A stretch of DNA of 64,000 nt from Escherichia coli (GTDB lineage Bacteria; Pseudomonadota; Gammaproteobacteria; Enterobacterales; Enterobacteriaceae). Where the stretch lies: NCBI RefSeq assembly GCF_044324875.1, contig NZ_CP172185.1. The stretch is one strand, 5' to 3'. Shown here in pieces: positions 3,645 through 29,981 of the stretch (within the stretch, counting starts at the first letter, position 1; every line of letters starts with the position of its first letter). Under the pieces are notes generated by a model. That model did no database searches, was not told where the DNA came from, and saw nothing but the letters and a program-made list of their open reading frames with translations. A program made the translations under genes and the position numbers.

Positions 3645-4764
3645 CAGCCAGTACGACCTCCCAGCTTTCTACCCAATTAATGGCCATTTTTTGGTCGAGA
3701 GAGTGGTCAAAGTCAGGATCGTCTTCATTGAAGAATTCGCTGACCATCACCATCTTGCCATTTTCCAGTTCAACAACCGACTCCAGCGTCATGCCTTTGT
3801 AGTTACGCTCGCGAACGTAACCAATCAGCCCTTCAGCGTGGTTGTCGTCGTTAATCTCTTCAACACGTAAGTCTTCCGGGCGCAGCAGAACATGCAGTTT
3901 TTGCCCCGGTTCAACGGCGAAGTTAACGTAGATATTACATTCGCGGCCTTCAACGTTGGCGCGTACGCGCTGCTCGTCTAGACGTTCGATGACAGTGGCG
4001 TTAAACATATTGATTTCGCCAATAAACCCAGCAACAAACAGGTTTTTCGGCTCTTCATAGATTTCACGCGGCGTGCCGTCTTGCTCAATGCGACCATCGC
4101 GCATCACCACAATCCTGTCCGACATGGTGAGTGCTTCTTCCTGGTCGTGAGTCACGAAGACGAATGTAATGCCAAGCTTACGCTGTAACGCTTTCAGCTC
4201 GTTCTGCATTTGCTTGCGCAGTTTGTAATCCAGCGCTGAGAGCGACTCATCCAGCAACAACAGACGAGGCTTGTTAACCACTGCGCGGGCAATGGCGACG
4301 CGTTGCTGTTGACCACCAGAGAGCTGATGCGGTTTGCGTTGAGCGAAGGTTTCCAGCTGCACCATCCGCAGGGCTTCCATCACGCGGGGCGTAATTTCAG
4401 CAGCGGGGGTTTTTTGCATGCGTAACCCAAAGGCCACATTTTCGAACACGGTCATGTGGGGGAAAAGTGCGTAGCTTTGGAAAACAGTGTTCACATAGCG
4501 GTTTTCCGCCGGAACGTGGGTGATGTCCTCGTTATCCAGCATGATGCGTCCGGAATCAACAGTTTCCAGACCTGCAATCAGGCGAAGAACGGTTGTTTTA
4601 CCGCAGCCAGAAGGGCCAAGCAGCGTGAGGAACTCGCCATTGTTGATAGTCAGATCCAGCTGGGGAATGACCTCTTTACCATCAAAGCATTTGCGAATTC
4701 CCGCCAATTGCACCAGCGGTGAAAGCGAACTCGGTTGTTTATTCAATTTTTTACTCTGTCCCAT
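3628..4764 (-). CDS. potA: Spermidine/putrescine ABC transporter ATPase PotA.
   Basis: 378-aa ORF with Walker [13 protein letters not shown] signature LSGGQQQR and Walker B LLLLDE. Confidence 0.95.
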
Positions 4765-5013
4765 GTAAACGCAACGGATGGCTTACCGATGCGGGGTTTG
4801 TGGTTAACCACCTTGGTGACTCTTAATGAGGGCGGTAATTCTACGGCAAACCGCTTGAATCGCCAATCTTTGTTGTGAATTACTGGCTTAGCTTTATATT
4901 CATTAAGGTAATGCTGATAAATATTCCCGCTTGCAGGGGTAAAAGTGACCTGACGCAATATTTGTCTTTTCTTGCTTCTTAATAATGTTGTCACAAAAAG
5001 TGAGGGTGACTAC

Positions 5014-6240
5014 ATGGATAAACTACTTGAGCGATTTTTGAACTACGTGTCTCTGGATACCCAATCAAAGGCAGGGGTGAGACAGGTTCCCAGCACGGAA
5101 GGCCAATGGAAGTTATTGCATCTGCTGAAAGAGCAGCTCGAAGAGATGGGGCTTATCAATGTGACCTTAAGTGAGAAGGGCACTTTGATGGCGACGTTAC
5201 CGGCTAACGTCCCTGGCGATATCCCGGCGATTGGCTTTATTTCTCATGTGGATACCTCACCGGATTGCAGCGGCAAAAATGTGAATCCGCAAATTGTTGA
5301 AAACTATCGCGGTGGCGATATTGCGCTGGGTATCGGCGATGAAGTTTTATCACCGGTTATGTTCCCGGTGCTGCATCAGCTACTGAGTCAGACGCTGATT
5401 ACCACCGATGGTAAAACCTTGTTAGGAGCCGATGACAAAGCAGGTATTGCAGAAATCATGACCGCGCTGGCGGTATTGCAACAGAAAAACATTCCGCATG
5501 GTGATATTCGCGTCGCCTTTACCCCGGATGAAGAAGTGGGCAAAGGGGCGAAACATTTTGATGTTGACGCCTTCGATGCCCGCTGGGCTTACACCGTTGA
5601 TGGTGGTGGCGTAGGCGAACTGGAGTTTGAAAACTTCAACGCTGCGTCGGTCAATATCAAAATTGTAGGCAATAACGTTCACCCAGGCACAGCGAAAGGT
5701 GTAATGGTGAATGCGCTGTCGCTGGCGGCACGTATTCATGCGGAAGTTCCGGCGGATGAAAGCCCGGAAATGACAGAAGGCTATGAAGGTTTCTATCACC
5801 TGGCGAGCATGAAAGGCACCGTTGAACGGGCCGATATGCACTACATCATCCGTGATTTCGACCGTAAACAGTTTGAAGCGCGTAAACGTAAAATGATGGA
5901 GATCGCCAAAAAAGTGGGCAAAGGGTTACATCCTGATTGCTACATTGAATTGGTGATTGAAGACAGTTACTACAATATGCGCGAGAAAGTGGTTGAGCAT
6001 CCGCATATTCTCGATATCGCCCAGCAGGCGATGCGTGACTGCGATATTGAACCGGAACTGAAACCGATCCGCGGCGGTACCGACGGCGCGCAGTTGTCGT
6101 TTATGGGATTACCGTGCCCGAACCTGTTCACTGGCGGTTACAACTATCATGGTAAGCATGAGTTTGTGACTCTGGAAGGTATGGAAAAAGCGGTGCAGGT
6201 GATCGTCCGTATTGCCGAGTTAACGGCGCAACGGAAGTAA
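5014..6240 (+). CDS. pepT: Peptidase T (tripeptide aminopeptidase).
   Basis: Six-frame ORF 4972..6240; start moved to [17 protein letters not shown] to give the 408-aa K-12 length. Confidence 0.93.
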
Positions 6241-6249
6241 GCGAAAAGG

Positions 6250-6273
6250 GATGCGGCATGTGATGCCGCATCC
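6250..6273. terminator. Bidirectional hairpin terminator between convergent pepT and roxA.
   Basis: Near-perfect inverted repeat GGATGCGGCAT-gtg-ATGCCGCATCC. Confidence 0.6.
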
Positions 6274-6288
6274 GGCTTAAATCCAAAC

Positions 6289-7410
6289 TTACCCTTCGAA
6301 GAACCAATACCCGCTATTGACCAGCGCCGCGAGCATCGCGAGGAATGACGGATCTTCCAGCGCATCGCCAAAATTCTCCGCAGTCAGCGCAATGTTGCTG
6401 GCGAGTGCATCCAGTGCCGGACGGTGCGGGGAATCGATCTTCTCACCATTGGCATACACGTCGTCGCCAATGCGCAATACGCGCAGACCACCCAGACGCA
6501 CCAGCACTTCACCTTGTTTCAGCGCATCGTAGATTTCATCCGGCTGATAAGGCGGCTCTGGCGGCGCGATATCCAGTTCATGGCGTGACTGGGATATAAA
6601 CTCCCCAAACCATTGCTTAAAGTGTTCCGGCTGGTTGATCAATTCGAGCATCATCTCACGCAGTTTATCCATCTCTTGCGGCAGAACATCCGCAGGATGA
6701 GCGCGAGGTGAAACATCAGGATCGCTGTAGTAGTTGCCGCCCAGTTCACGTTGCAGCACATAATCGGCAAATCCGCTAATCAGTTCCCGCGTATTTGGTG
6801 CGCGAAAACCGACGGAATAGTTCATCGCATTTTCCAGCGCGTAGCCTTCATGGGGGAATCCTGGCGGAATATAAAGAATATCGCCTGGCTCCAGTTCTTC
6901 ATCAATGATGGCTTCGAACGGATCAACCTGTAACAGATCCGGGTGCGGGCAGTGCTGTTTCATTTGCAGCTTTTCGCCCACTCGCCAGCGACGACGTCCG
7001 GTACCCTGAATGATAAACACGTCGTACTGATCGAGATGCGGGCCGACGCCGCCGCCAGGTACAGAAAAAGAGATCATCAGATCATCAATACGCCAGTCCG
7101 GTAGTTCACGGAACGGTCGCATCAGCGCGGCGGTCGGCTCATGCCAGTGGTTCACTGCCTGCACTAACAATGACCAGTTAGTTTCACCGAGATGATCGTA
7201 GCTTTCGAACGGGCCGTGGCTGACCTGCCATTTGCCATCCTGGTGGCTGACCAGTCGACTGTCGACTTCGCTTTCCATCGCCAGACCCGCCAACTCGTCT
7301 GGAGAGATCGGGTCAATAAAATTATTAAAGCCGCGTTTTAACACCACCGGACGTTTCTGCCAGTGACGTTCAAGAAAATCGGGCCAGTTAAGAGTGAGTT
7401 GGTATTCCAT
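6289..7410 (-). CDS. roxA: Ribosomal protein L16 arginine hydroxylase (JmjC/cupin 2-oxoglutarate oxygenase) RoxA/YcfD.
   Basis: ORF 6289..7419; start taken at MEYQLTLNWPDFLERHW (373 aa). Confidence 0.9.
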   Translation of the reverse strand: MEYQLTLNWPDFLERHWQKRPVVLKRGFNNFIDPISPDELAGLAMESEVDSRLVSHQDGKWQVSHGPFESYDHLGETNWSLLVQAVNHWHEPTAALMRPFRELPDWRIDDLMISFSVPGGGVGPHLDQYDVFIIQGTGRRRWRVGEKLQMKQHCPHPDLLQVDPFEAIIDEELEPGDILYIPPGFPHEGYALENAMNYSVGFRAPNTRELISGFADYVLQRELGGNYYSDPDVSPRAHPADVLPQEMDKLREMMLELINQPEHFKQWFGEFISQSRHELDIAPPEPPYQPDEIYDALKQGEVLVRLGGLRVLRIGDDVYANGEKIDSPHRPALDALASNIALTAENFGDALEDPSFLAMLAALVNSGYWFFEG

Positions 7411-7611
7411 GTTAAGCATCCACAGGCTGGTATCTGCAACCGATTATAACGGATGCTTAACGTAATGCGTGAAGTATGGGCATACTTTATCAATTAGTGT
7501 TTTTTGCCGTTTCATAATGTTTCAGGTTGTGCATTATGTTTTTGATTATAAACAAATTTGTGATTTTTCTTGTTCCAGCTTGTTTCACGTTGTAGCCCTT
7601 TGTGCAACGAT

Positions 7612-7637
7612 CGGTGTAGTTAATGGTGTAGTTAATT
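7612..7637. repeat. attL core of the integrated element: CGGTGTAGTTAATGGTGTAGTTAATT, itself a tandem GGTGTAGTTAAT duplication.
   Basis: Identical 26-mer at 18721–18746; a further ~45 bp upstream of each copy is imperfectly similar. Confidence 0.65.
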
Positions 7638-8888
7638 GTGATGACCGGATTCAAAATTATGAGCAGAGCACTTAACAAGCTGAGCGATACACAGCTAAGG
7701 AAAATCAACGGCACACCCGCCCAAAAAACAGCCTTTCTTAATGACGGTGGAAACTTGAGCGTCAGGCATTCAACCAGCGGCCTTTTAACCTGGTATTTCA
7801 CTTACAGGGCCGGAACGGGAAGGGGGGCATCACCGGAACGCATTAAGCTGGGAAATTATCCTGATCTGAGCCTGAAATCAGCCAGGGAAAAAGCCGCCCA
7901 GTGTCGCGCATGGCTGGCTGAGGGGAAAAATCCACGTCATGAGATGAATTACACCGTACAGGAAGCGTTAAAGCCTGTAACGGTTGGCGATGCGCTCACC
8001 TACTGGCTTGAGTCGTACGCAAAGGAAAACCGTGTGGATTATGACCCACTGAAAAAGCGGCTAAATAATCACGTAATACAGCACATTGGCCCTATGCCGC
8101 TGGATAAATGCGAGCTACGGCACTGGCTGGCCTGTTTTGATCGGGTGGCAAAGCAAGCCCCTGTTTCCGCCGGGTTCCTGCTACAGACATGCAAACAGGC
8201 GCTTAAGTTCTGCCGGAAGCGGCGCTATGCAATCAGCAACGTTCTTGATGATATGAGTGTGGCTGACGTTGGGAAAAAACCGGATATAGGCGAACGTGTC
8301 TTAAGTACCAAAGAACTGGGCGAATTATTGCAGGCACTGGACAAAAAAATATTTTCCCCTTACTACGTCGCACTAATCCGCCTCCTGATTGTTTTCGGAT
8401 GCCGGACAGTAGAACTGAGGTTATCGGAGATCGGCGAGTGGGATTTTACCGAAATGCTCTGGACCGTTCCGAAGGAGCACAGCAAAACGAAGGTAGCCAT
8501 ATTCCGGCCCATACCGGAAGCGATACTGCCGTTCGTCACGCAGCTGATGGAGCAGAACAGGCACACGGGCTTATTGCTGGGGGAAGTGAAACAGGAAACC
8601 AGCGTGTCGCAGTACGGCAGATTAGTGCACAGGAGGCTTAAACACCCTCACTGGTCACTGCATGACATCCGGCGCACCTTTACAACGATGCTGAACGATT
8701 TAGGCGTGGATCCTCACGTCGTGGAGCAGCTTACAGGCCACCAGATGCCAGGAATGCAGCGAGTTTATAATCATTCCCGTTATCTGGATGCGAAACGCAA
8801 TGCGCTGGATATGTGGACGGAGCGGTTAGGGATACTGGCGGGAGCACATGAAAACGTAACCACGCTACCAGTAACCAGAAGAAAATAA
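7638..8888 (+). CDS. int: Tyrosine-type site-specific integrase (P4-like family).
   Basis: Starts immediately after attL; C-terminal catalytic region ...LHDIRRTFTTMLNDLGVDPHVVEQLTGHQMPGMQRVYNHSRYLDA... (R, H-x-x-R, Y). Start ambiguous: GTG 7638, ATG 7641 or ATG 7659. Confidence 0.85.
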   Translation: MMTGFKIMSRALNKLSDTQLRKINGTPAQKTAFLNDGGNLSVRHSTSGLLTWYFTYRAGTGRGASPERIKLGNYPDLSLKSAREKAAQCRAWLAEGKNPRHEMNYTVQEALKPVTVGDALTYWLESYAKENRVDYDPLKKRLNNHVIQHIGPMPLDKCELRHWLACFDRVAKQAPVSAGFLLQTCKQALKFCRKRRYAISNVLDDMSVADVGKKPDIGERVLSTKELGELLQALDKKIFSPYYVALIRLLIVFGCRTVELRLSEIGEWDFTEMLWTVPKEHSKTKVAIFRPIPEAILPFVTQLMEQNRHTGLLLGEVKQETSVSQYGRLVHRRLKHPHWSLHDIRRTFTTMLNDLGVDPHVVEQLTGHQMPGMQRVYNHSRYLDAKRNALDMWTERLGILAGAHENVTTLPVTRRK

Positions 8889-8936
8889 TTTTTTTCGTGT
8901 TTTTTCAGTATGCGCATACTGGATAAGTGCACAGAT

Positions 8937-8970
8937 ACAACGTGAAACAATAAGCAACAACGTGAAACAA
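8937..8970 (+). promoter_or_regulatory. Two direct CAACGTGAAACAA repeats, candidate integrase arm-type binding sites.
   Basis: The same motif occurs inverted beside attL (7583–7598, CTTGTTTCACGTTG) and beside attR (18681–18700, TGTTCCACGTTGTTTCAT). Confidence 0.4.
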
Positions 8971-9262
8971 CCACGAACAAGAGGTCAAAAAGTATACAGA
9001 TTTATAAGTTGCTGATTTTTAATGCTCAACTGGTTTTTTATACATTAGCGAATAACGCTTTAAATAGTGAGAAAAAAGTCATAAAACGAGATTTTATGCC
9101 TTTGCATAATACTGAATTAAAATGATTTTTATTAAAATCACCCCGTTTCTGTAAAATACCCGCCACCAACATTTGCCAACTCTGAATCACCCTGACACAA
9201 TCAGACACATCCCAACGCAATAGAACACGAAATAACTCTTTAAGAAACGAAAGGGGGCAATA

Positions 9263-9451
9263 GTGTTAAGCACTGATCGGTTTATACGTGAAAAAGAATG
9301 CGAAAAGCTAACAGGCCTTAGCCGCTCATGCCGCTACCGCCTGGAAAAGGCCGGACAATTCCCATCACGGCGTAAGCTGGGCGGTCGTTCCGTTGGCTGG
9401 TCTTTATCCGAAGTTCTGGCATGGAAGGAAAGCTGCGAGGCAGTTCACTAA
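9263..9451 (+). CDS. alpA: AlpA-family phage transcriptional regulator / excisionase-like HTH protein (62 aa, GTG start).
   Basis: MLSTDRFIREKECEKLTGLSRSCRYRLEKAGQFPSRRKLGGRSVGWSLSEVLAWKE matches the AlpA/CP4-57 regulator pattern; sits just downstream of int. Confidence 0.75.
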   Translation: MLSTDRFIREKECEKLTGLSRSCRYRLEKAGQFPSRRKLGGRSVGWSLSEVLAWKESCEAVH

Positions 9452-9777
9452 AAAGACTGGCGGCACACAGCCGCCACCCATCCACTAATACAGAGATTTA
9501 ACCATGAAGACTGGATATACGCCCGAACAGGGGCGGGGCTTCGTTCGGCCTGGTGAAACTGAAAAACAACAAAATCGCGGTTTTTCAGGCATAAAAAAAG
9601 CGGCCCCGATAAGGAGCCGCCTTTCTGAACAATTAACCTACAGCGCAAAAAATGAATCTGAGCAGTGGGATTATATCAACCGTGCAACGAAGCGCCACAA
9701 TTGCCGGATAACGGGCAAAGAAAAGGCCACCTGTCACGGTGGCCAATGTGATCAGTGTGGTGGCTTGCTGGTGGCTA

Positions 9778-9969
9778 TCAACCTTTGGGTTCTATACCGC
9801 GCCGCTTTAGTTCAGCGCGCCCCAACTCTTTAAGCCAGTTGGCTAGGCTTATGCCGTCGCTCTGCGCTTCTTTGTCGAATTGCTCTTTTAGCTCTGGAGA
9901 AATTCGCATTCTGAATTGTGGGGATTGCCCATCACCCTTAGGGCTTTTATCACGTTTGATTGTTGACAA
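9778..9969 (-). CDS. Small ribbon-helix-helix (Arc/CopG-like) DNA-binding protein, candidate repressor, divergent from the replication operon.
   Basis: 63 aa, ...RMRISPELKEQFDKEAQSDGISLANWLKEL...; followed on the minus strand by a stem plus T-run terminator (~9590–9628). Confidence 0.5.
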   Translation of the reverse strand: MSTIKRDKSPKGDGQSPQFRMRISPELKEQFDKEAQSDGISLANWLKELGRAELKRRGIEPKG

Positions 9970-10016
9970 GTGGTCACCTATTAAATTAGCCTTTCTATTG
10001 TTAGGTGGTCACCTTA
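9969..10016. promoter_or_regulatory. Divergent promoter/operator region with two direct GTGGTCACCT repeats.
   Basis: AGTGGTCACCT at 9970 and GGTGGTCACCT at 10005, between the RHH gene start and the first gene of the rightward operon. Confidence 0.35.
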
Positions 10017-10088
10017 ACACGGGGACACTTAAAAAAGCAAAGCCCGAAGGCGCTAGGAACACCAACGGGCTTCTAACCACAAACCGTT

Positions 10089-10301
10089 ATGAGAGGTAGT
10101 TTTATGGCTGTAAGACAGCATACCCCACGACTAGCGCACACACAAACCGCCTTTGTGTGGCGTTTTCTGGCACTGAGTGCCGGAGAATCTCAAATCATCC
10201 ACGTAACCGCCTGGACGGAACGCGAAGCGCGTAGCCGTTGCCCGTCCGGTTGTGTTGCTGTATTCGCCGCCCGTATTCGTCAGGGGGTGTACCATGATTA
10301 A
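10089..10301 (+). CDS. Small protein resembling host cell-division inhibitor Icd-like proteins of P4-type satellites (weak call).
   Basis: MAVRQHTPRLAHTQTAFVWRFLALSAGESQIIHVTAWTEREARSRCPSGCVAVFAARI...; first gene of a translationally coupled operon; alternative start at 10104. Confidence 0.4.
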   Translation: MRGSFMAVRQHTPRLAHTQTAFVWRFLALSAGESQIIHVTAWTEREARSRCPSGCVAVFAARIRQGVYHD

Positions 10302-10662
10302 CCTGTCACTTACCGATCTTAACCGCGTTCAGTTTCGTGAGAAATTTACCGGACAGCTACTCGTCAATGTGGAGAACGGGCGCATAGTGCGTAATTATCA
10401 CCTGCCGGATGGTGCAATTGCCGGAAGCGTTGAAGCATTGCTGGAACTGGCGGAACGTGCGCGACTGATTAAGCCGTCAACGAGCCATCACGATGATGAT
10501 CTGCATTTTACCGGATGTATGGTGAGTCACTACGAAAACGGCGTCGAGGTATCCTGCGAACGGCTGCGTGATGATTGCTGTTTCGGCACACTGCCGGAAT
10601 TTATCGAATTGCTGACCAGTTGCGGATATCAGGTTATTCAGGGGGTGCGCCATGTGCAATAA
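10294..10662 (+). CDS. Hypothetical protein (~122 aa), satellite early operon.
   Basis: ORF with start/stop overlap to both neighbours; no recognisable motif. Confidence 0.55.
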   Translation: MINLSLTDLNRVQFREKFTGQLLVNVENGRIVRNYHLPDGAIAGSVEALLELAERARLIKPSTSHHDDDLHFTGCMVSHYENGVEVSCERLRDDCCFGTLPEFIELLTSCGYQVIQGVRHVQ

Positions 10663-16046: not shown

Positions 16047-16057
16047 CGGGGGATTCT

Positions 16058-16393
16058 ATGGACGCTCCATACATTGAGTTATTTTCAGGCAGCCAACAGG
16101 TATCCACGACGCTGGTACATTTTGCCGCTGATGCTGGCGTTATTCAGGAATTTACCCCGCTGATGCTGGCAGACAATGGCGAGTTTAAGCCGTGGGATGG
16201 TAAGGAATCTGGCAAGGCTGTTTATCTGACCTCGTACCCTGTGGACACGTCAAAGCAGAAATCAGCACAGTGTTACAAGACGGGGATATTCAATATTGCC
16301 GCCGTTAACTGGCCTGACAGCGTCGACACCGATGCGAAAAAATGCGCCGCCTTTGCGGGTTCCGGCGTATCCGTTCAGCCGCTGGCCCGATAA
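16058..16393 (+). CDS. Phage lambda gpD-like head decoration protein homologue.
   Basis: 111 aa; FTPLMLADNGEFKPWDG / KTGIFNIAAVNWPDSVDTDAKKCAAFAGSGVSV parallels lambda gpD MTPLMLDTSSRKLVAWDG / [34 protein letters not shown]. Confidence 0.7.
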   Translation: MDAPYIELFSGSQQVSTTLVHFAADAGVIQEFTPLMLADNGEFKPWDGKESGKAVYLTSYPVDTSKQKSAQCYKTGIFNIAAVNWPDSVDTDAKKCAAFAGSGVSVQPLAR

Positions 16394-16467
16394 GCAGGGG
16401 GAACGATGGCACAAACCAGGGCGATGACGGCGACATCTATCGCATACTGAAAACCATCTGAGACAAG

Positions 16468-16491
16468 GCCGGAGAAATCCGGCTTTTTTTG
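16468..16491 (+). terminator. Rho-independent terminator after the head genes, just upstream of cos.
   Basis: GGCCGGAGAAATCCGGCTTTTTTT; near-identical to the 14551 terminator. Confidence 0.55.
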
Positions 16492-16499
16492 CGGGTCCT

Positions 16500-16640
16500 T
16501 TCCGGCATGTGGACCCGTTACGGGGCGTCGACCTCGCACGTTTTCGCTATTTATGAAAATTTTCCGGGAAAAAGCATGTCAGTTCTTCTTGTTATTAACA
16601 TATTGTTTTTAAAGAAATAACTATCAAGAAAGAAACGACA
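16500..16640. other. Lambda-type cohesive-end site (cosQ/cosN/cosB-like); predicted 12-nt overhang region GGGCGTCGACCT at 16523–16534.
   Basis: GTTACGGGGCGTCGACCTCGCACGTTTTCGCTATTTATGAAAATTTTCCGG is near-identical to the lambda genome ends (GTTACG|GGGCGGCGACCTCGCGGGTTTTCGCTATTTATGAAAATTTTCCGG); a downstream GAAAGAAACGACA resembles a lambda cosB R site. Confidence 0.8.
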
Positions 16641-16710
16641 TCATAATGATGAAAAATCTGTTTTTTTTGGCATTTCATGTCGTAACTGATTTTTGATAAG
16701 GAATTGCTGA

Positions 16711-17295
16711 ATGAATGTTAATAAAAAGAGGCTTGCCGAAATTTTTAACGTGGACCCGCGGACGATTGAACGCTGGCAGTCACAGGGGCTTCCTTGCGTC
16801 TCCAAAGGCAGTAAGGGCATTGAATCTGTATTTGATACTGCCATGGCAATTCAGTGGTATGCGCGGAGGGAAACTGATATCGAAAACGAAAAGCTCCGCA
16901 AAGAACTGGACGATTTGCGTGCGGCAGCGGAGTCAGATTTACAACCCGGCACCATTGACTATGAACGCTATCGGCTCACAAAAGCGCAGGCAGATGCGCA
17001 GGAACTTAAAAACGAGCGCGATCGCGGTGACGTGATTGATACAGAGTTTTGCATGTACGCGCTTTCAAAACTGGCGAGTCAGATTTCATCAATCATGGAC
17101 AGCCTCCCGCTTACTATGCAAAGGAGCTTCCCACAGATGACCCCCGCCATGCTGGATGGCCTGAAAAAAGAAGTTGTCAGAGCCTGTAACGCATGCACAA
17201 AACTTGATGAAAACATCCCGCGAATGCTGTCCGATTATCTGATGGAAACTACCGGAAATGTGCCTGATAAGTTTCAGCCGGATAAAGACAAGTAA
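16711..17295 (+). CDS. Terminase small subunit, lambda Nu1 family (TerS/Rpp-like).
   Basis: [29 protein letters not shown]...[44 protein letters not shown] tracks lambda Nu1 MEVNKKQLADIFGASIRTIQNWQEQGMPV...[44 protein letters not shown]. Confidence 0.85.
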
Positions 17296-17536
17296 CGTAG
17301 TGCACAATGACCGAAGCCAGTTTACTGACTGGCTTTCAGCGTTGCGCTGGTGGGCGTTATGCGTCAGTGATAAACGTCTCCAATATTACTGATATTCGAC
17401 ATCCCCACCTCTCCACACCAGCTCGAATATCATTTTTCTCATTAAAAACAGGACATTAAAAACTGGTCAGATGTCCCATAAAAAGCCAAATGGGACAGGT
17501 CAAAAGCTTTTTTTGCAGTAATTTTCAATAGGTTAC

Positions 17537-17935
17537 TTGATGTGGTGGTGTCCCATGAAAATTCAAAAATCAGCCGTTTTCCGCGATGCTCCCGCCCCGT
17601 GGCAGGGCACCCCACAAGGAGGACCCGCCATCACTATGGAGGACATGACCATGACCGAGACCGAAGCGCTCGGGATAATCCGCAGTATTACCGGAATCAG
17701 CCAGCAGGCTGGCGAACAGGAGGCCACGCAGCCGGACAGCGTGATCGCCGAAAATTACGTGCGTGTTGTTGCTGATGTAATGCGCCGTGATGGTATTGAG
17801 CTTAACGGCGTGGATATGCGCGACATACGAATCAGAGTACTAGAGTTGCTGGCATACCGTCGACGCGTGGCGATGTATCAGGAGAGCGCGAAAAACACTT
17901 ATCAGTGGAAGAAGCCGGAGCGGTTACGGCGGTAA
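17537..17935 (+). CDS. Hypothetical protein (likely ~100 aa from an internal ATG near 17636, which has an RBS).
   Basis: ORF downstream of terS; no recognisable motif; ends 1 bp before the palindrome array. Confidence 0.45.
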   Translation: MMWWCPMKIQKSAVFRDAPAPWQGTPQGGPAITMEDMTMTETEALGIIRSITGISQQAGEQEATQPDSVIAENYVRVVADVMRRDGIELNGVDMRDIRIRVLELLAYRRRVAMYQESAKNTYQWKKPERLRR

Positions 17936-18560
17936 CTGGTTGATATTTTCGAAATTCGCCAGCGGCGAACATCGGGGAAACCAGCCTAACCAGTTGATTC
18001 TTTCGGAAACAGCCATTGGCGGAATCCGGCGCGGTAACTTGCTGATATTCCCGATAACGCAAAATTGCGCTGGCTACATCCCTCACATCTGAGGACTGAT
18101 AATGCGACATTGCGCTGGCTGGCAAAGTGCAAAATTGCACGATGGCCTAACCCATTGATTATTTCGAAAACCTGCAATGCAGGAAATCGGGGAAGTAAGC
18201 CTAAGCTATTGATTCTTTCGGAAACCTCAATTTGAGGAAGTCGGCGCGGTAACTCGCTGAACTTAAAGCAAACCTCAAAATTGAGCTGGCTGAATAATCA
18301 TTATGATTACGCAGATGATTAAGGAATGACCGAAGGCGGAAATTCGCCTGTGGTTGATGGGGGAGTTGCAGATCTGCAACTCGACCATGAAACTACGGAA
18401 ACTACCCGTAGTTTGGGTAGTAAGAGTAACACCCAGATTTTGGGACTTACTCGTGATACCCAAATTTGGAGTATCGGTGGCAACCATAACGACTTTCGTT
18501 ACGGTTGATGCTTTTACCCCATTGGGGGAAAGGTATTACGATAATCATAACACCTACCGA
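17936..18560. repeat. Array of many distinct short palindromes in a diverged, duplicated scaffold (unknown function).
   Basis: Scaffold TTGAT(A/T)(T/A)TTTCGAAA...ATCGGGGAA..AGCCTAA occurs twice, and TTGATTCTTTCGGAAAC...TCGGCGCGGTAACT..GCTGA twice; different palindromes in each copy (e.g. TTCGCCAGCGGCGAA, CCTGCAATGCAGG, GTTGCAGATCTGCAAC). Full list in findings. Confidence 0.7.
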
Positions 18561-25640: not shown

Positions 25641-26891
25641 ATGGAAAGTAAAGTAGTTGTTCCGGCACAAGGCAAGAAGATCACCCTGCAAAACGGCAAA
25701 CTCAACGTTCCTGAAAATCCGATTATCCCTTACATTGAAGGTGATGGAATCGGTGTAGATGTAACCCCAGCCATGCTGAAAGTGGTCGACGCTGCAGTCG
25801 AGAAAGCCTATAAAGGCGAGCGTAAAATCTCCTGGATGGAAATTTACACCGGTGAAAAATCCACACAGGTTTATGGTCAGGATGTCTGGCTACCTGCTGA
25901 AACCCTTGATCTGATTCGTGAATATCGCGTTGCCATCAAAGGCCCGCTGACCACTCCGGTTGGTGGCGGTATTCGCTCTCTGAACGTTGCCCTGCGCCAG
26001 GAGCTGGATCTCTATATCTGCCTGCGTCCGGTACGTTACTACCAGGGCACCCCAAGCCCGGTTAAACACCCTGAACTGACCGATATGGTTATCTTCCGTG
26101 AAAACTCGGAAGACATTTATGCGGGTATCGAATGGAAAGCAGACTCTGCCGACGCTGAGAAAGTGATTAAATTCCTGCGTGAAGAGATGGGCGTGAAGAA
26201 AATTCGCTTCCCGGAACATTGCGGCATCGGTATTAAGCCGTGTTCTGAAGAAGGCACCAAACGTCTGGTTCGTGCAGCGATCGAATACGCAATTGCTAAC
26301 GATCGTGACTCTGTGACCCTGGTGCACAAAGGCAACATCATGAAATTCACCGAAGGCGCGTTTAAAGACTGGGGCTACCAGCTGGCGCGTGAAGAGTTTG
26401 GCGGTGAACTGATCGACGGCGGCCCGTGGCTGAAAGTTAAAAACCCGAATACCGGCAAAGAGATCGTCATTAAAGACGTGATTGCTGATGCATTCCTGCA
26501 ACAGATCCTGCTGCGTCCGGCTGAATATGACGTTATCGCCTGTATGAACCTGAACGGTGACTACATTTCTGACGCCCTGGCAGCGCAGGTTGGCGGTATC
26601 GGTATCGCCCCTGGCGCAAACATCGGTGATGAATGCGCCCTGTTTGAAGCCACCCACGGTACTGCGCCGAAATATGCCGGTCAGGACAAAGTAAACCCAG
26701 GCTCTATTATTCTCTCCGCTGAGATGATGTTACGCCATATGGGTTGGACTGAAGCCGCAGACCTGATTGTTAAAGGTATGGAAGGCGCGATCAACGCGAA
26801 GACTGTAACCTATGACTTCGAACGTCTGATGGAAGGCGCTAAACTGCTGAAATGTTCAGAGTTTGGTGATGCGATCATCAAGAACATGTAA
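25641..26891 (+). CDS. icd: Isocitrate dehydrogenase (NADP).
   Basis: 416 aa, [41 protein letters not shown]... Confidence 0.97.
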
Positions 26892-26896
26892 TCACT

Positions 26897-26938
26897 ACAT
26901 GTGTTAAATATTGAAACGGGCGTATAACACGCCCGTTG
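26897..26938 (+). terminator. icd terminator hairpin, copy 1 of a duplicated ~42-bp sequence.
   Basis: ACATGTGTTAAATATTGAAACGGGCGTATAACACGCCCGTTG (stem AACGGGCGT / ACGCCCGTT) followed by a T-rich run. Confidence 0.7.
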
Positions 26939-26993
26939 TTTTATTTATGTGGATATTATTAATAGCATGTCGAGCATATTTATATGAAGCCCA

Positions 26994-27317
26994 TTACTTG
27001 AGTCCATATGGGCATATTTTTATAATACAACTATTATGCAAACATTTATTTGGTATTTCGCTTTCTCCTGGAGGACACTCTTGACTGCTTTTGAGTAAAC
27101 TCCATAAATCCTTGTTGAATGGTGTTATGTTATAAATAGTAATAGGGTATTCTTTATCCTTAAAGATAATACCAGACTTAACCGGTGTAAATATACTTCC
27201 AGGAGGGAGAAATATAGTAGATTGATACCAGATGATCATTTTCATATCACCCCATATGGCTGAAAAAGATATGCCGCATGTAGGTTGAATTACCGTGTCA
27301 ATTACTATCCACTTCAT
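26994..27317 (-). CDS. iraM: Anti-adaptor protein IraM (RpoS stabiliser).
   Basis: 107 aa, [43 protein letters not shown]...; AT-rich context. Confidence 0.85.
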
Positions 27318-27761
27318 TTGTTATGTCTTATCCCACGGTATTTAATATGGTTCATTAGGATGTTTATTTCTTGATTTTGCATATGAGTATATTACCCCCT
27401 CAAAAAACAAATTAATTAAAAATTAAAACCATTGTTTAGATAAAACAAAATTTAAAGCAAGAAATCTCAATAGATATTAAACAAAATGAGATTTAGTGAA
27501 AACATTAAATTATTCACTTCGTTTTAGATTTGTTTAGCTAAAATGTTATACATTCAAATGACTGAACATCCTGTAATTAAAACATAGCCTTTATACTACT
27601 TTGTGCCAATTTGCTAAACATTATGGTTGGCCTTTTATTTAACGATAATGACGAATATAAGCATAACATGAGAATAAGATTTCAGTTTTTTAGTTATATA
27701 GGAATGGTTTAACCCATTCCTGGCTAAAATACATATAACTGGATGATGACTAAACCAAAAC

Positions 27762-27804
27762 ACATGTGCGTTAAGTATTGAAACGGGCGTATGGCACGCC
27801 CGTT
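27762..27804 (+). repeat. Second copy of the icd-terminator sequence, interrupted at its 3' end by IS2.
   Basis: ACACATGTGCGTTAAGTATTGAAACGGGCGTATGGCACGCCCGTTG; the continuation TTTTTTATAAAT resumes after IS2 at ~29151. Confidence 0.6.
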
Positions 27805-27896
27805 GTAGACTGGCCCCCTGAATCTCCAGACAACCAGTATCACTTAAATAAGTGATAGTCTTAATACTAGTTTTTAGACTAGTCATTGGAGAACAG

Positions 27897-28262
27897 ATGA
27901 TTGATGTCTTAGGGCCGGAGAAACGCAGACGGCGTACCACACAGGAAAAGATCGCAATTGTTCAGCAGAGCTTTGAACCGGGGATGACGGTCTCCCTCGT
28001 TGCCCGGCAACATGGTGTAGCAGCCAGCCAGTTATTTCTCTGGCGTAAGCAATACCAGGAAGGAAGTCTTACTGCTGTCGCCGCCGGAGAACAGGTTGTT
28101 CCTGCCTCTGAACTTGCTGCCGCCATGAAGCAGATTAAAGAACTCCAGCGCCTGCTCGGCAAGAAAACGATGGAAAATGAACTCCTCAAAGAAGCCGTTG
28201 AATATGGACGGGCAAAAAAGTGGATAGCGCACGCGCCCTTATTGCCCGGGGATGGGGAGTAA
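27897..28262 (+). CDS. insC: IS2 transposase OrfA (InsC).
   Basis: [56 protein letters not shown]... Confidence 0.9.
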
Positions 28263-29125
28263 GCTTAGTCAGCCGTTGTCTCCGGGTGTCGCGTGCGCAG
28301 TTGCACGTCATTCTCAGACGAACCGATGACTGGATGGATGGCCGCCGCAGTCGTCACACTGATGATACGGATGTGCTTCTCCGTATACACCATGTTATCG
28401 GAGAGCTGCCAACGTATGGTTATCGTCGGGTATGGGCGCTGCTTCGCAGACAGGCAGAACTTGATGGTATGCCTGCGATCAATGCCAAACGTGTTTACCG
28501 GATCATGCGCCAGAATGCGCTGTTGCTTGAGCGAAAACCTGCTGTACCGCCATCGAAACGGGCACATACAGGCAGAGTGGCTGTGAAAGAAAGTAATCAG
28601 CGATGGTGCTCTGACGGGTTCGAGTTCCGCTGTGATAACGGAGAAAAACTGCGAGTCACGTTCGCGCTGGACTGCTGTGACCGTGAGGCACTGCACTGGG
28701 CGGTCACTACGGGCGGCTTCAACAGTGAAACAGTACAGGACGTCATGCTGGGAGCGGTGGAACGCCGCTTCGGCAACGAGCTTCCGGCGTCTCCAGTAGA
28801 GTGGCTGACGGATAATGGTTCATGCTACCGGGCTAATGAAACACGGCAGTTTGCCCGGATGTTGGGGCTTGAACCGAAGAGCACGGCGGTGCGGAGTCCG
28901 GAGAGTAACGGCATAGCAGAGAGCTTCGTGAAAACGATAAAGCGTGACTACATCAGTGTCATGCCCAAACCAGACGGGTTAACGGCAGCAAAGAACCTTG
29001 CAGAGGCGTTCGAGCATTATAACGAATGGCATCCGCATAGTGCACTGGGTTATCGCTCGCCACGGGAATATCTACGGCAGCAAGCCAGTAATGGGTTAAG
29101 TGATAACAGGTGTCTGGAAATATAG
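28220..29125 (+). CDS. insD: IS2 transposase OrfB (InsD, DDE domain); expressed as an OrfAB fusion by -1 frameshifting.
   Basis: 301-aa ORF overlapping orfA in the -1 frame. Confidence 0.9.
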
Positions 29126-29356
29126 GGGCAAATCCACGTTGTTTTTTATAAATATGTTAACCGCTATAAAATAACGTATAGAAAGTCAAGTGATCACATT
29201 TCAAATATCAAGTTGATAGTATTGATCTGGTGATTATTTATGGGTGGCAATAAAAAGATAGTATTACTCATCCATATGAATAGTCTCTGCACTTTTATTT
29301 CCATTATGCTAATGCCTTACTGAATTATGAAGCATTTTTTAAGCGTCCAACTTTAG

Positions 29357-29761
29357 CTAGATTAATGGTTTATTATTTTCTACATCTTCAATATATAAAA
29401 GCGTATTATCAATGGTGTAGTAACTGCGTTTGTTATGATTAACATCAGTAACCCACCGGAAAACGCCCGCGTCTGCCAGTGTTGAACAGTATTCCCGAAA
29501 TGTTGATTTTCCGCAAATATGAAGCAATGCGGCCTCTTTTATTTTAGCAGGGTTCTTGGTCGTACTAACTTTTAACAGGTTCCTGGTTCCTCTTAATAAC
29601 AAAACCGTGTCATCGTGAGTAATAATTCTGATGTTATCCGTAGCCAGATAATAAATGTAATGTGCAATACGGTGATGTTTTAATTCTGAATAAAACCAGG
29701 AGAAGTTTTGCTCTTTTCTCACTTGCTCAAACATCTTTTGAAAAACAACAACCTGATCCAT
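29357..29761 (-). CDS. ycgX: DUF1398-family protein YcgX.
   Basis: 134-aa ORF in the K-12-syntenic position between iraM and bluR. Confidence 0.8.
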   Translation of the reverse strand: MDQVVVFQKMFEQVRKEQNFSWFYSELKHHRIAHYIYYLATDNIRIITHDDTVLLLRGTRNLLKVSTTKNPAKIKEAALLHICGKSTFREYCSTLADAGVFRWVTDVNHNKRSYYTIDNTLLYIEDVENNKPLI

Positions 29762-29981
29762 CAGGATAATAACCTCTTGTTAGTTGTGAGACTGCGTAGT
29801 GTGCACGATCGGTTTTACCACTTCAATCTGGTCTGTCCTTTGGCTGTGATATGTACAAAGTGTGAAAGGGGAATTACCTGAATTCTCCCGGTGAGCATTT
29901 TGCAACGGACCAGCTCCGGTACAAACGCTGTTGTGGGTTCAGATTATAACATTCTGTCTAAGGGGCGGGATAAAGGTGAAA

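Follow-up and report, generated by a model that had tools for sequence, protein, structure and literature searches.

Two copies of the icd terminator bracket iraM in Escherichia coli: a probable record of serial prophage integration

The DNA analyzed here (the window) is a 64,000-nucleotide (nt) stretch of Escherichia coli contig NZ_CP172185.1, and our subject is the short AT-rich segment downstream of the isocitrate dehydrogenase gene icd that carries iraM, the gene for the anti-adaptor protein IraM. IraM ties the PhoPQ low-magnesium signal to the stabilization of the stress sigma factor RpoS. The genes of the region are arranged in the order mnmA, nudJ, and rluE (all on the minus strand), icd (plus strand), iraM (minus strand), the insertion sequence (IS) element IS2, ymgL and ycgX (both minus strand), and then bluR and bluF. 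The iraM segment is bracketed by two copies of the icd terminator, which are referred to below as copy 1 (T1), the one next to icd, and copy 2 (T2), the one interrupted by IS2. The region was 96.5-97.5% identical to K-12 and BL21, which placed it in E. coli in the broad sense. The features of the locus are listed in Table 1.

Table 1. Features of the icd-ycgX region, with positions in the window and the basis of each assignment (aa, amino acids; ORF, open reading frame)
Feature	Position	Strand	Basis
icd, isocitrate dehydrogenase, intact, 416 aa	25641-26891	+	ORF; 96-97% identity to K-12/BL21 icd; annotated icd in matching genomes
Prophage crossover region of attB (e14-type, phage-21-type), empty here	26727-26733		165 bp before icd stop
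Copy 1 (T1), the icd terminator	26897-26949	+	Direct-repeat search, terminator scan, RNA fold
iraM, anti-adaptor protein IraM, 107 aa	26994-27317	-	93-94% identity to E. coli IraM clusters (PF11183); phrog_4407 match
AT-rich region upstream of iraM, including ymgK	27318-27761	-	25-30% G+C; 72% identity to haplotype C counterpart
ymgK, 14-codon small ORF	27577-27621	-	BLAST from K-12
Left portion of copy 2 (T2), with spacer, hairpin 27782-27804, and first CGTTG 27801-27805	27762-27805	+	Repeat search, alignment
IS2, complete, 1331 bp	27806-29136	+	Terminal inverted repeats, NCBIfam matches
Second CGTTG 29137-29141, copy 2 T-run, ~55 nt of e14-family P'-arm homology	29137-29196	+	Anchored alignment, BLAST
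ymgL, intact 36-codon small ORF	29194-29304	-	93% identity to K-12 ymgL; stop-free translation
ycgX (DUF1398)	29357-29761	-	phrog_413 match

The direct-repeat search aligned positions 26900-26939 with positions 27767-27806, that is, 40 nt without gaps at 90% identity, with the second copy located 867 bp further on. When IS2 was removed and gaps were allowed, the alignment covered about 54 columns at approximately 89% identity (ACATGT..GTTAAATATTGAAACGGGCGTATAACACGCCCGTTGTTTTATTTAT versus ACATGTGCGTTAAGTATTGAAACGGGCGTATGGCACGCCCGTTGTTTTTTAT), and a blastn-short comparison of the two copies yielded an E value of 4e-8 in a small local database consisting of the window and seven loci. Copy 2 resumed beyond IS2 at 29142 and ran to about 29150. 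The identity between the copies included the spacer and the bases flanking the loop (GTTAA.TATTGAAA and ACATGTG) in addition to the stem; thus, the repeat reflects homology and not the convergence of two similar stems. Every difference between the copies fell to the left of CACGCCCGTTGTTTT. The segment between the copies (26950-27761) had a G+C content of 30%, as opposed to 50.5% for icd, and iraM was its sole sizeable gene, accompanied by the 14-codon ymgK. An initial annotation of this DNA, made from the sequence alone, had described the icd hairpin region as repeated at ~90% identity around an AT-rich iraM segment of ~820 bp, and our alignments confirmed this description. We also considered a third, older terminator or icd fragment further to the right, and a blastn-short comparison of the icd end plus hairpin with the whole window and the early loci returned only the two copies.

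The hairpin of copy 1 (26915-26937) is preceded by an A-run and followed by a T-run. The terminator scan identified a 9-bp stem with six G-C pairs followed by TTGTTTTATTT, as in an intrinsic terminator, and the RNA fold had an energy of -21.7 kcal/mol (z score of -4.6) on the plus strand and -17.3 kcal/mol (z score of -4.8) on the minus strand. With a strong predicted hairpin and a T-run on both strands, copy 1 probably now serves as a bidirectional terminator common to the convergent icd and iraM genes. The copy 2 hairpin was intact in the window (-17.1 kcal/mol, minus strand), its minus-strand tail was UUUCAAUACUU, a poor U-run, and on the minus strand it may stop ycgX-ymgL transcripts ahead of the iraM promoter. 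In the case of K-12, copy 2 (L001 17964-17988) carried two uncompensated stem changes (AACGGACGTG...CACGGCCGTT), and its fold (-9.7 kcal/mol; z score of -1.45) was no better than that of shuffled sequence; the BL21-type copy 2 had one uncompensated stem change. The copy 1 stem, on the other hand, showed no variation in any of the hairpin loci listed from a scan of viral contigs. Uncompensated changes in copy 2 against an invariant stem in copy 1 fit a relic under weak constraint. Known RNA families were also searched over 26500-29800, and nothing came close to threshold.

The arrangement of the locus was surveyed in 5426 complete E. coli genomes, with a contiguous match required for a genome to be counted. 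The order found in the window, namely icd, hairpin, iraM, and second hairpin (haplotype A), was present in 3864 genomes (~71%), including K-12 and BL21, in which both copies were located at the same relative positions. BLAST with the K-12 icd-e14-iraM region matched only the flanks in the window, which agreed with the initial annotation that no e14 genes are present. K-12, however, has e14 and both copies, which indicated that the absence of e14 is unrelated to the presence of the repeat, and the suggestion that the duplication is a peculiarity of an e14-free genome had to be dropped. The hairpin scan of viral contigs returned mostly prophage predictions running into the chromosome, with both copies ~860 bp apart, as well as three loci in which a single hairpin joined the icd end to the right flank of copy 2.

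The same single-hairpin structure defined haplotype B, which lacked iraM and was found in 1037 of the 5426 genomes, including strains 536 and F11, both of which belong to phylogroup B2. In haplotype B, the hairpin joined the end of icd straight to the copy 2 right flank, and the break was located exactly at the repeat, so that the presence/absence polymorphism of these 1037 genomes ended at the repeats. Strain CFT073 has also been reported to be without iraM (PMC4045071).

A third arrangement, haplotype C, was traced from an IraM allele with 71% identity and was present in 19 of the 5426 genomes. It contained a larger cassette with the order icd, hairpin, e14-type arm, 455-aa ORF, TrkH-like gene, iraM, ymgB-like gene, second hairpin, ymgL, and ycgX. 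The first 142 nt of the cassette (icd end, hairpin, and arm) were 98.6% identical to an e14-like attL. From the iraM stop codon to copy 2, haplotype C was collinear with the window at 72-80% identity, and the window was without ~230 nt that were located directly to the left of copy 2 in haplotype C. No recombinase was found among the genes of the cassette.

In 2.7 kb of the right flank, haplotype B was as near to the window as K-12 was (2.6-3.0% difference), and haplotype C was the outgroup (5-6% difference). Given these distances, and given that haplotypes A and C share the cassette and the copy 2 junction, one gain of iraM with a loss in haplotype B was the most economical account. Judging from this short recombining region, iraM was probably lost in the haplotype B lineage through a deletion with its end points in the two copies.

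Several additional observations were made on haplotype C genomes. The distance between icd and ycgX was ~6.3 kb (L068 reverse strand 4150-10460; also L072-L074 and L062). The 455-aa ORF consisted of two similar halves, the TrkH-like gene encoded a TrkH/TrkG-like potassium transporter, the ymgB-like gene resembled ymgB/ariR, and in some genomes the iraM allele was truncated and encoded 81 aa. In L068, DUF8209 and DUF1493 genes and an IS3-family transposase gene were located at 16049-18195, on the promoter side of icd, where rluE is normally found; L072-L074 had a normal rluE there. A second insertion, on this side of icd, is therefore suggested for some haplotype C genomes. A 41-nt stretch was shared at 92.7% identity between window positions 42721-42761 and the haplotype C cassette (L068 reverse strand 8365-8405), where it fell between the TrkH-like gene and iraM, and it may be a small repeat element.

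The position of the prophage crossover was clear from genomes with a prophage in icd. Specifically, the match of these genomes to the window began at 26727-26733, which is 165 bp before the icd stop codon, and the alignment of K-12 icdC started at window position 26727. In the passage of PMC6379469 that cites Hill et al. (1989), the e14 crossover is likewise placed inside icd, 165 bp before the stop codon. The junctions indicated that the hairpin is not the e14 crossover site. The initial annotation had taken the hairpin repeat for the e14-type attachment site, and this was incorrect, since the crossover lies upstream inside icd and the hairpin is merely part of the icd 3' copy that is carried along. 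The e14 element brings the final 165 bp of icd, followed by a diverged hairpin of its own (AACGGGAGCGTAACGCTCCCGTT) and then by three copies of TTATCAAAA. The O157 lambdoid prophage has an icd end and a native-type hairpin that are identical up to window position 26944, followed by three copies of TTCCCCAAAA and an integrase gene. Based on their position and repetition, the TTATCAAAA and TTCCCCAAAA repeats are putative integrase arm sites. Loss of iraM through ycgH accompanied the prophage in the O157 strain that was examined.

Two further sequences concerned icd-integrating elements. A relative that was ~85% identical to E. coli (L064 reverse strand 4095-5923; L064 2148-2255) contained icd, a different hairpin, and three TTCCCCAAAA-type arm repeats, followed directly by a ycgX-like DUF1398 gene. 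Two icd 3' fragments were located ~6 kb away, and the bracketed DNA contained a TibC-like glycosyltransferase gene, an AIDA-type autotransporter gene, and a PapB-like gene. L064 appears to be a parallel decayed element, a pile-up at the same att site. In a hairpin scan covering one genome per species, a single contig, DYWT01000019.1 (L008), was found among the matches listed, and no Escherichia genome was returned. L008 is 5.2 kb long and is assigned to a Sporosarcina psychrophila metagenome-assembled genome (MAG); it consists of E. coli-like icd DNA with an e14-like element and is probably contamination of that MAG. Information on outgroups was indirect and came from protein look-ups.

The probable origin of copy 2 was indicated by its flanks. 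In haplotypes A and B, the ~55 nt on the right side of copy 2 could be aligned in register with four e14-family arms, namely that of e14 from K-12 and those of three e14-like elements. When the leading T-run was held fixed, the alignment score was reached by 0-7 of 5000 dinucleotide shuffles, and two controls, the phage-21-type arm and the copy 1 flank of the window, were negative; an earlier, weaker version of this test was also run. A BLAST comparison of the haplotype C T1 plus arm with the K-12 T2 plus flank showed 76% identity over 92 nt (E = 1e-9). The relic in the copy 2 flank had the form of degenerate TTATCAAAA-type repeats, and an e14-type P' arm was recognized both there and at copy 1 of haplotype C.

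On the left side, copy 2 of haplotype C was preceded by ATCAAGAATATGTTAA, which corresponds to the last four codons (IKNM) and the stop region of icd and is followed by a recognizable spacer. The anchored test of ATCAAGAATATGTTAA was matched by 4-47 of 5000 shuffles, and tblastn also found IKNM. Longer icd alignments at this position were discarded because they were unstable across gap parameters (p ~0.002-0.05), and only the last ~21 nt were kept. An icdC-type fragment, which would extend from the crossover in icd, 165 bp ahead of its stop codon, was not found for copy 2, and the lack of icd coding sequence to the left of copy 2 in the window indicated that the icdC-type signature is eroded here. 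Two independent tests thus tie copy 2 to an e14-family element that provided an icd 3' end. The initial annotation had reasoned that a scar would be ruled out if K-12-like genomes lacking e14 had the two copies as a normal feature, with no relation to e14 attP; two copies did turn out to be a normal feature, but the arm homology to the right of copy 2 provided a relation to e14.

The IraM relatives found outside the icd locus showed 62-71% identity, and all of them were located in lambdoid prophages, where the iraM-family genes lie between the Q antiterminator gene and the lysis genes, in antisense orientation and often directly after stx2B. The flanks of the phage iraM genes shared no DNA with the chromosomal icd locus. 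We also considered the idea that the hairpin was part of a mobile iraM module and rejected it, as the phage iraM flanks (L006, L009, and L013) had different terminators without similarity. The Pfam family of every IraM relative, and by sequence that of the window IraM, was PF11183, which is named PmrD. IraM and PmrD are both small connector proteins, and both are PhoP regulated. YcgX belongs to DUF1398/phrog_413, as does ybcV of an O157 prophage. The YcgX homologue of E. albertii was located between Rz and Nu1 of a prophage, the O157 prophage member was located in the late region near the lysis genes, and the YcgX relatives examined were all in lambdoid prophages or at chromosomal sites. As a route to an empty site, the YcgX homologues were rejected because the E. 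albertii copies were in prophages and other Escherichia copies were at the fliC-yedEF locus. The patchiness of iraM and its association with prophages are already known from the literature; in PMC4045071, iraM is placed "on e14", and the gene lies outside the annotated e14 prophage.

In Stx2a and Stx2c phages, stx2B was followed directly by an iraM-family gene that is encoded on the opposite strand and precedes nanS-p (L006 5001-5324, L013 3206-3541, and L007 3417-3737). A prophage-encoded RssB anti-adaptor beside toxin genes could alter RpoS levels in lysogens.

The reading that we favor, and consider reasonably probable, is that the two hairpins are successive icd 3' ends left by serial prophage integration, with copy 2 as the displaced earlier end and iraM as surviving cargo. 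Elements of the e14 and phage 21 types would recombine in icd and bring an icd 3' end, a terminator hairpin, and an integrase-arm region, and each integration would shift the previous icd end to the right. Copy 2 and the ~55 nt on its right would then be the left junction of an older e14-family element, and ymgL and ycgX would be its decayed remainder. A later icd-integrating element with iraM as cargo would have brought in copy 1 and pushed this older end away by a distance equal to the length of the inserted DNA. What remained of this later element after decay would be the large cassette of haplotype C and, in the window, the iraM segment of ~820 bp; the displaced icd coding fragment would have been deleted. 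The direct repeat probably served as the substrate for the deletion of iraM in the 536/F11 lineage, and in the present strain IS2 has landed in copy 2. The initial annotation had also interpreted the repeat as a scar, left when an earlier integration at the icd att site brought in iraM. This proposal stood in part: the arm homology, the arm and icd codons of haplotype C, the polymorphism bounded by the repeat, and the lambdoid relatives of IraM all favored it, but the hairpin was not the crossover and the icdC-type signature is eroded in the window.

Several points weigh against this history. No integrase remnant was found in any cassette, and neither an integrase or excisionase gene nor a remnant of one was detected between the copies in the window. 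The copy 1 flank of the window showed no similarity to e14-type or phage-21-type arms. To the left of copy 2, no significant icd coding homology was found in the window or in K-12, and in haplotype C only the ~21 nt of icd homology was convincing and nhmmer found nothing. The e14-type arm of haplotype C could belong to a later layer than iraM, and whether iraM was gained or lost between haplotypes was judged from 2.7 kb of DNA subject to recombination. Moreover, no true outgroup species was found in which the site was unambiguously empty; the hairpin scan gave one contaminant contig.

One alternative is a single insertion with its crossover in the hairpin, in which a small iraM element used the icd terminator as attB, the two copies are attL and attR, and the ancestral empty site is preserved in the single-hairpin genomes. 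The presence/absence polymorphism does break exactly at the repeat, the differences between the copies all lie to the left of CACGCCCGTTGTTTT as they would for an attP x attB hybrid, and the window has no icd coding sequence to the left of copy 2. We nevertheless regard this alternative as unlikely. Copy 2 of haplotype C reaches through the icd stop codon and the last four codons, the hairpin of the "empty" genomes is itself trailed by a relic of an e14-type arm, and, in the flank, haplotype B is not placed outside the haplotypes that carry iraM. In addition, the prophage junctions seen were all at 26727-26733, recombination between the two copies would yield the same empty product, and we know of no integrase that targets the icd terminator hairpin.

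Still less likely, in our estimation, is a local duplication that arose by slippage or unequal recombination without a mobile element, with iraM arriving later by illegitimate recombination from a lambdoid phage. The shortness of the repeat (~54 nt), the lack of shared flanks between the phage iraM genes and the chromosomal locus, and the absence of an integrase would all be compatible with such a duplication, but it leaves unexplained the e14-type arm to the right of copy 2, the e14-type arm to the right of haplotype C copy 1, and the icd codons to the left of haplotype C copy 2. Finally, functional convergence, in which copy 2 evolved independently as a ycgX-ymgL terminator that resembles the icd terminator, is hardly credible: a minus-strand hairpin does follow ymgL and ycgX and has a predicted energy of -17 kcal/mol in the window, but the identity covers the spacer and loop-flanking bases as well as the stem, the stems of the K-12 and BL21 types are broken without compensation, and the minus-strand U-run (UUUCAAUACUU) is poor.

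The serial-integration reading can be extended, more tentatively, to at least three integrations in succession at a single att site, with a separate icd-terminator copy marking each of them. The layers would be an e14-family layer (now ymgL-ycgX and possibly further parts of the AT-rich bluRF/ycgZ-ymgAB region), an iraM layer, and e14 or a lambdoid prophage in some strains. In this extended form, which we consider possible but somewhat short of an even chance, IraM would be domesticated prophage cargo, and the repeat would have mediated its clean loss in the 536/F11 lineage, which carries the phage-borne paralogue iraL instead. If the layered reading is true, a species-wide regulator of RpoS stability was acquired as the cargo of a prophage and domesticated.

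The element that interrupts copy 2 had all the characteristics of IS2, a member of the IS3 family: a length of exactly 1331 bp, imperfect terminal inverted repeats, a 5-bp target duplication, and both tnpA and tnpB. The tnpA product (within 27852-28262) scored 275.8 bits against the NCBIfam model "IS2 repressor TnpA" (cutoff of 229), and the tnpB product (28220-29125) scored 713 bits against "IS2 transposase TnpB" (cutoff of 597). These scores and the CGTTG on both sides substantiated the IS2 insertion that had been called in the second copy. No second copy of IS2 was found in the window. The insertion is located 489 bp upstream of the iraM start codon, and it separates the copy 2 hairpin from its plus-strand T-run, which is now 1.3 kb away on the far side of IS2. 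The junction between IS2 and the second hairpin was found in 0 of the 5426 genomes; thus, the IS2 insertion alone is strain specific at this locus. Elsewhere in the window, a ycgH-like gene for an AIDA-type autotransporter was found in pieces at 36259-41566 (ORFs at 36259-37863, 37860-38558, and 41009-41566), interrupted by an IS21-family element (istA, 39327-40973, and istB, 38555-39553, both on the minus strand). Together with IS2, this element suggests an IS-rich strain.

The two terminator copies offer a concrete, datable account of how iraM arrived at icd, and the repeat accounts for whole lineages that are without iraM and have their breakpoints at the repeat. In compact form, the locus illustrates how old junctions accumulate beside a housekeeping gene when one att site is reused, and how they can be read as strata. 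The known mechanism is unchanged, and the history of a well-studied locus is refined. Prophage att scars and the repeated use of att sites are already well known; the iraM locus is a new instance, and its arrangement is ordinary in that most E. coli have it. In the literature searched, we found no description of the duplicated icd terminator, the adjacent relic of an e14-type arm, or the three haplotypes.

Several known systems can be compared with this locus. The iraL gene on the potB island of CFT073 has been described previously (PMC4045071). Like iraM, iraL and the iraM-like genes downstream of stx2B belong to the PF11183 family, and they are prophage borne and antisense to the late operon; unlike iraM, they are found in recognizable prophages at other loci, and their flanks share nothing with the icd locus. 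The phage-21-like and O157 lambdoid prophages in icd use the same att region, have a near-identical icd end and hairpin up to 26944, and carry DUF1398 genes like ycgX, but their TTCCCCAAAA arm repeats resemble neither flank in the window.

The closest parallel was the e14 attL/attR pair of K-12 (icd/icdC), in which icd-3'-derived direct repeats also bracket foreign AT-rich DNA. As with e14, where the element supplies the icd end, the hairpin, and the TTATCAAAA arm, copy 2 has homology to the e14 arm in its right flank. The K-12 repeat, however, extends ~210 bp from the crossover inside icd, whereas the repeat described here is ~54 nt and starts past the stop codon; the K-12 bracket contains 15 kb with intE and xisE, whereas the iraM bracket contains 820 bp and no recombinase; and the iraM bracket is present in most E. 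coli and is not strain specific. More generally, tandem or serial prophage integration is established for tRNA genes and other hot-spot att sites, as are decayed "grounded" prophages (reviewed in PMC6379469). The icd-iraM locus resembles these cases in that one att site was apparently reused, older junctions were displaced, and decay left cargo that is useful to the host. It differs from them in that the strata are unusually compact, with two scars within 900 bp, and in that one stratum is a near-universal regulator gene of the species.

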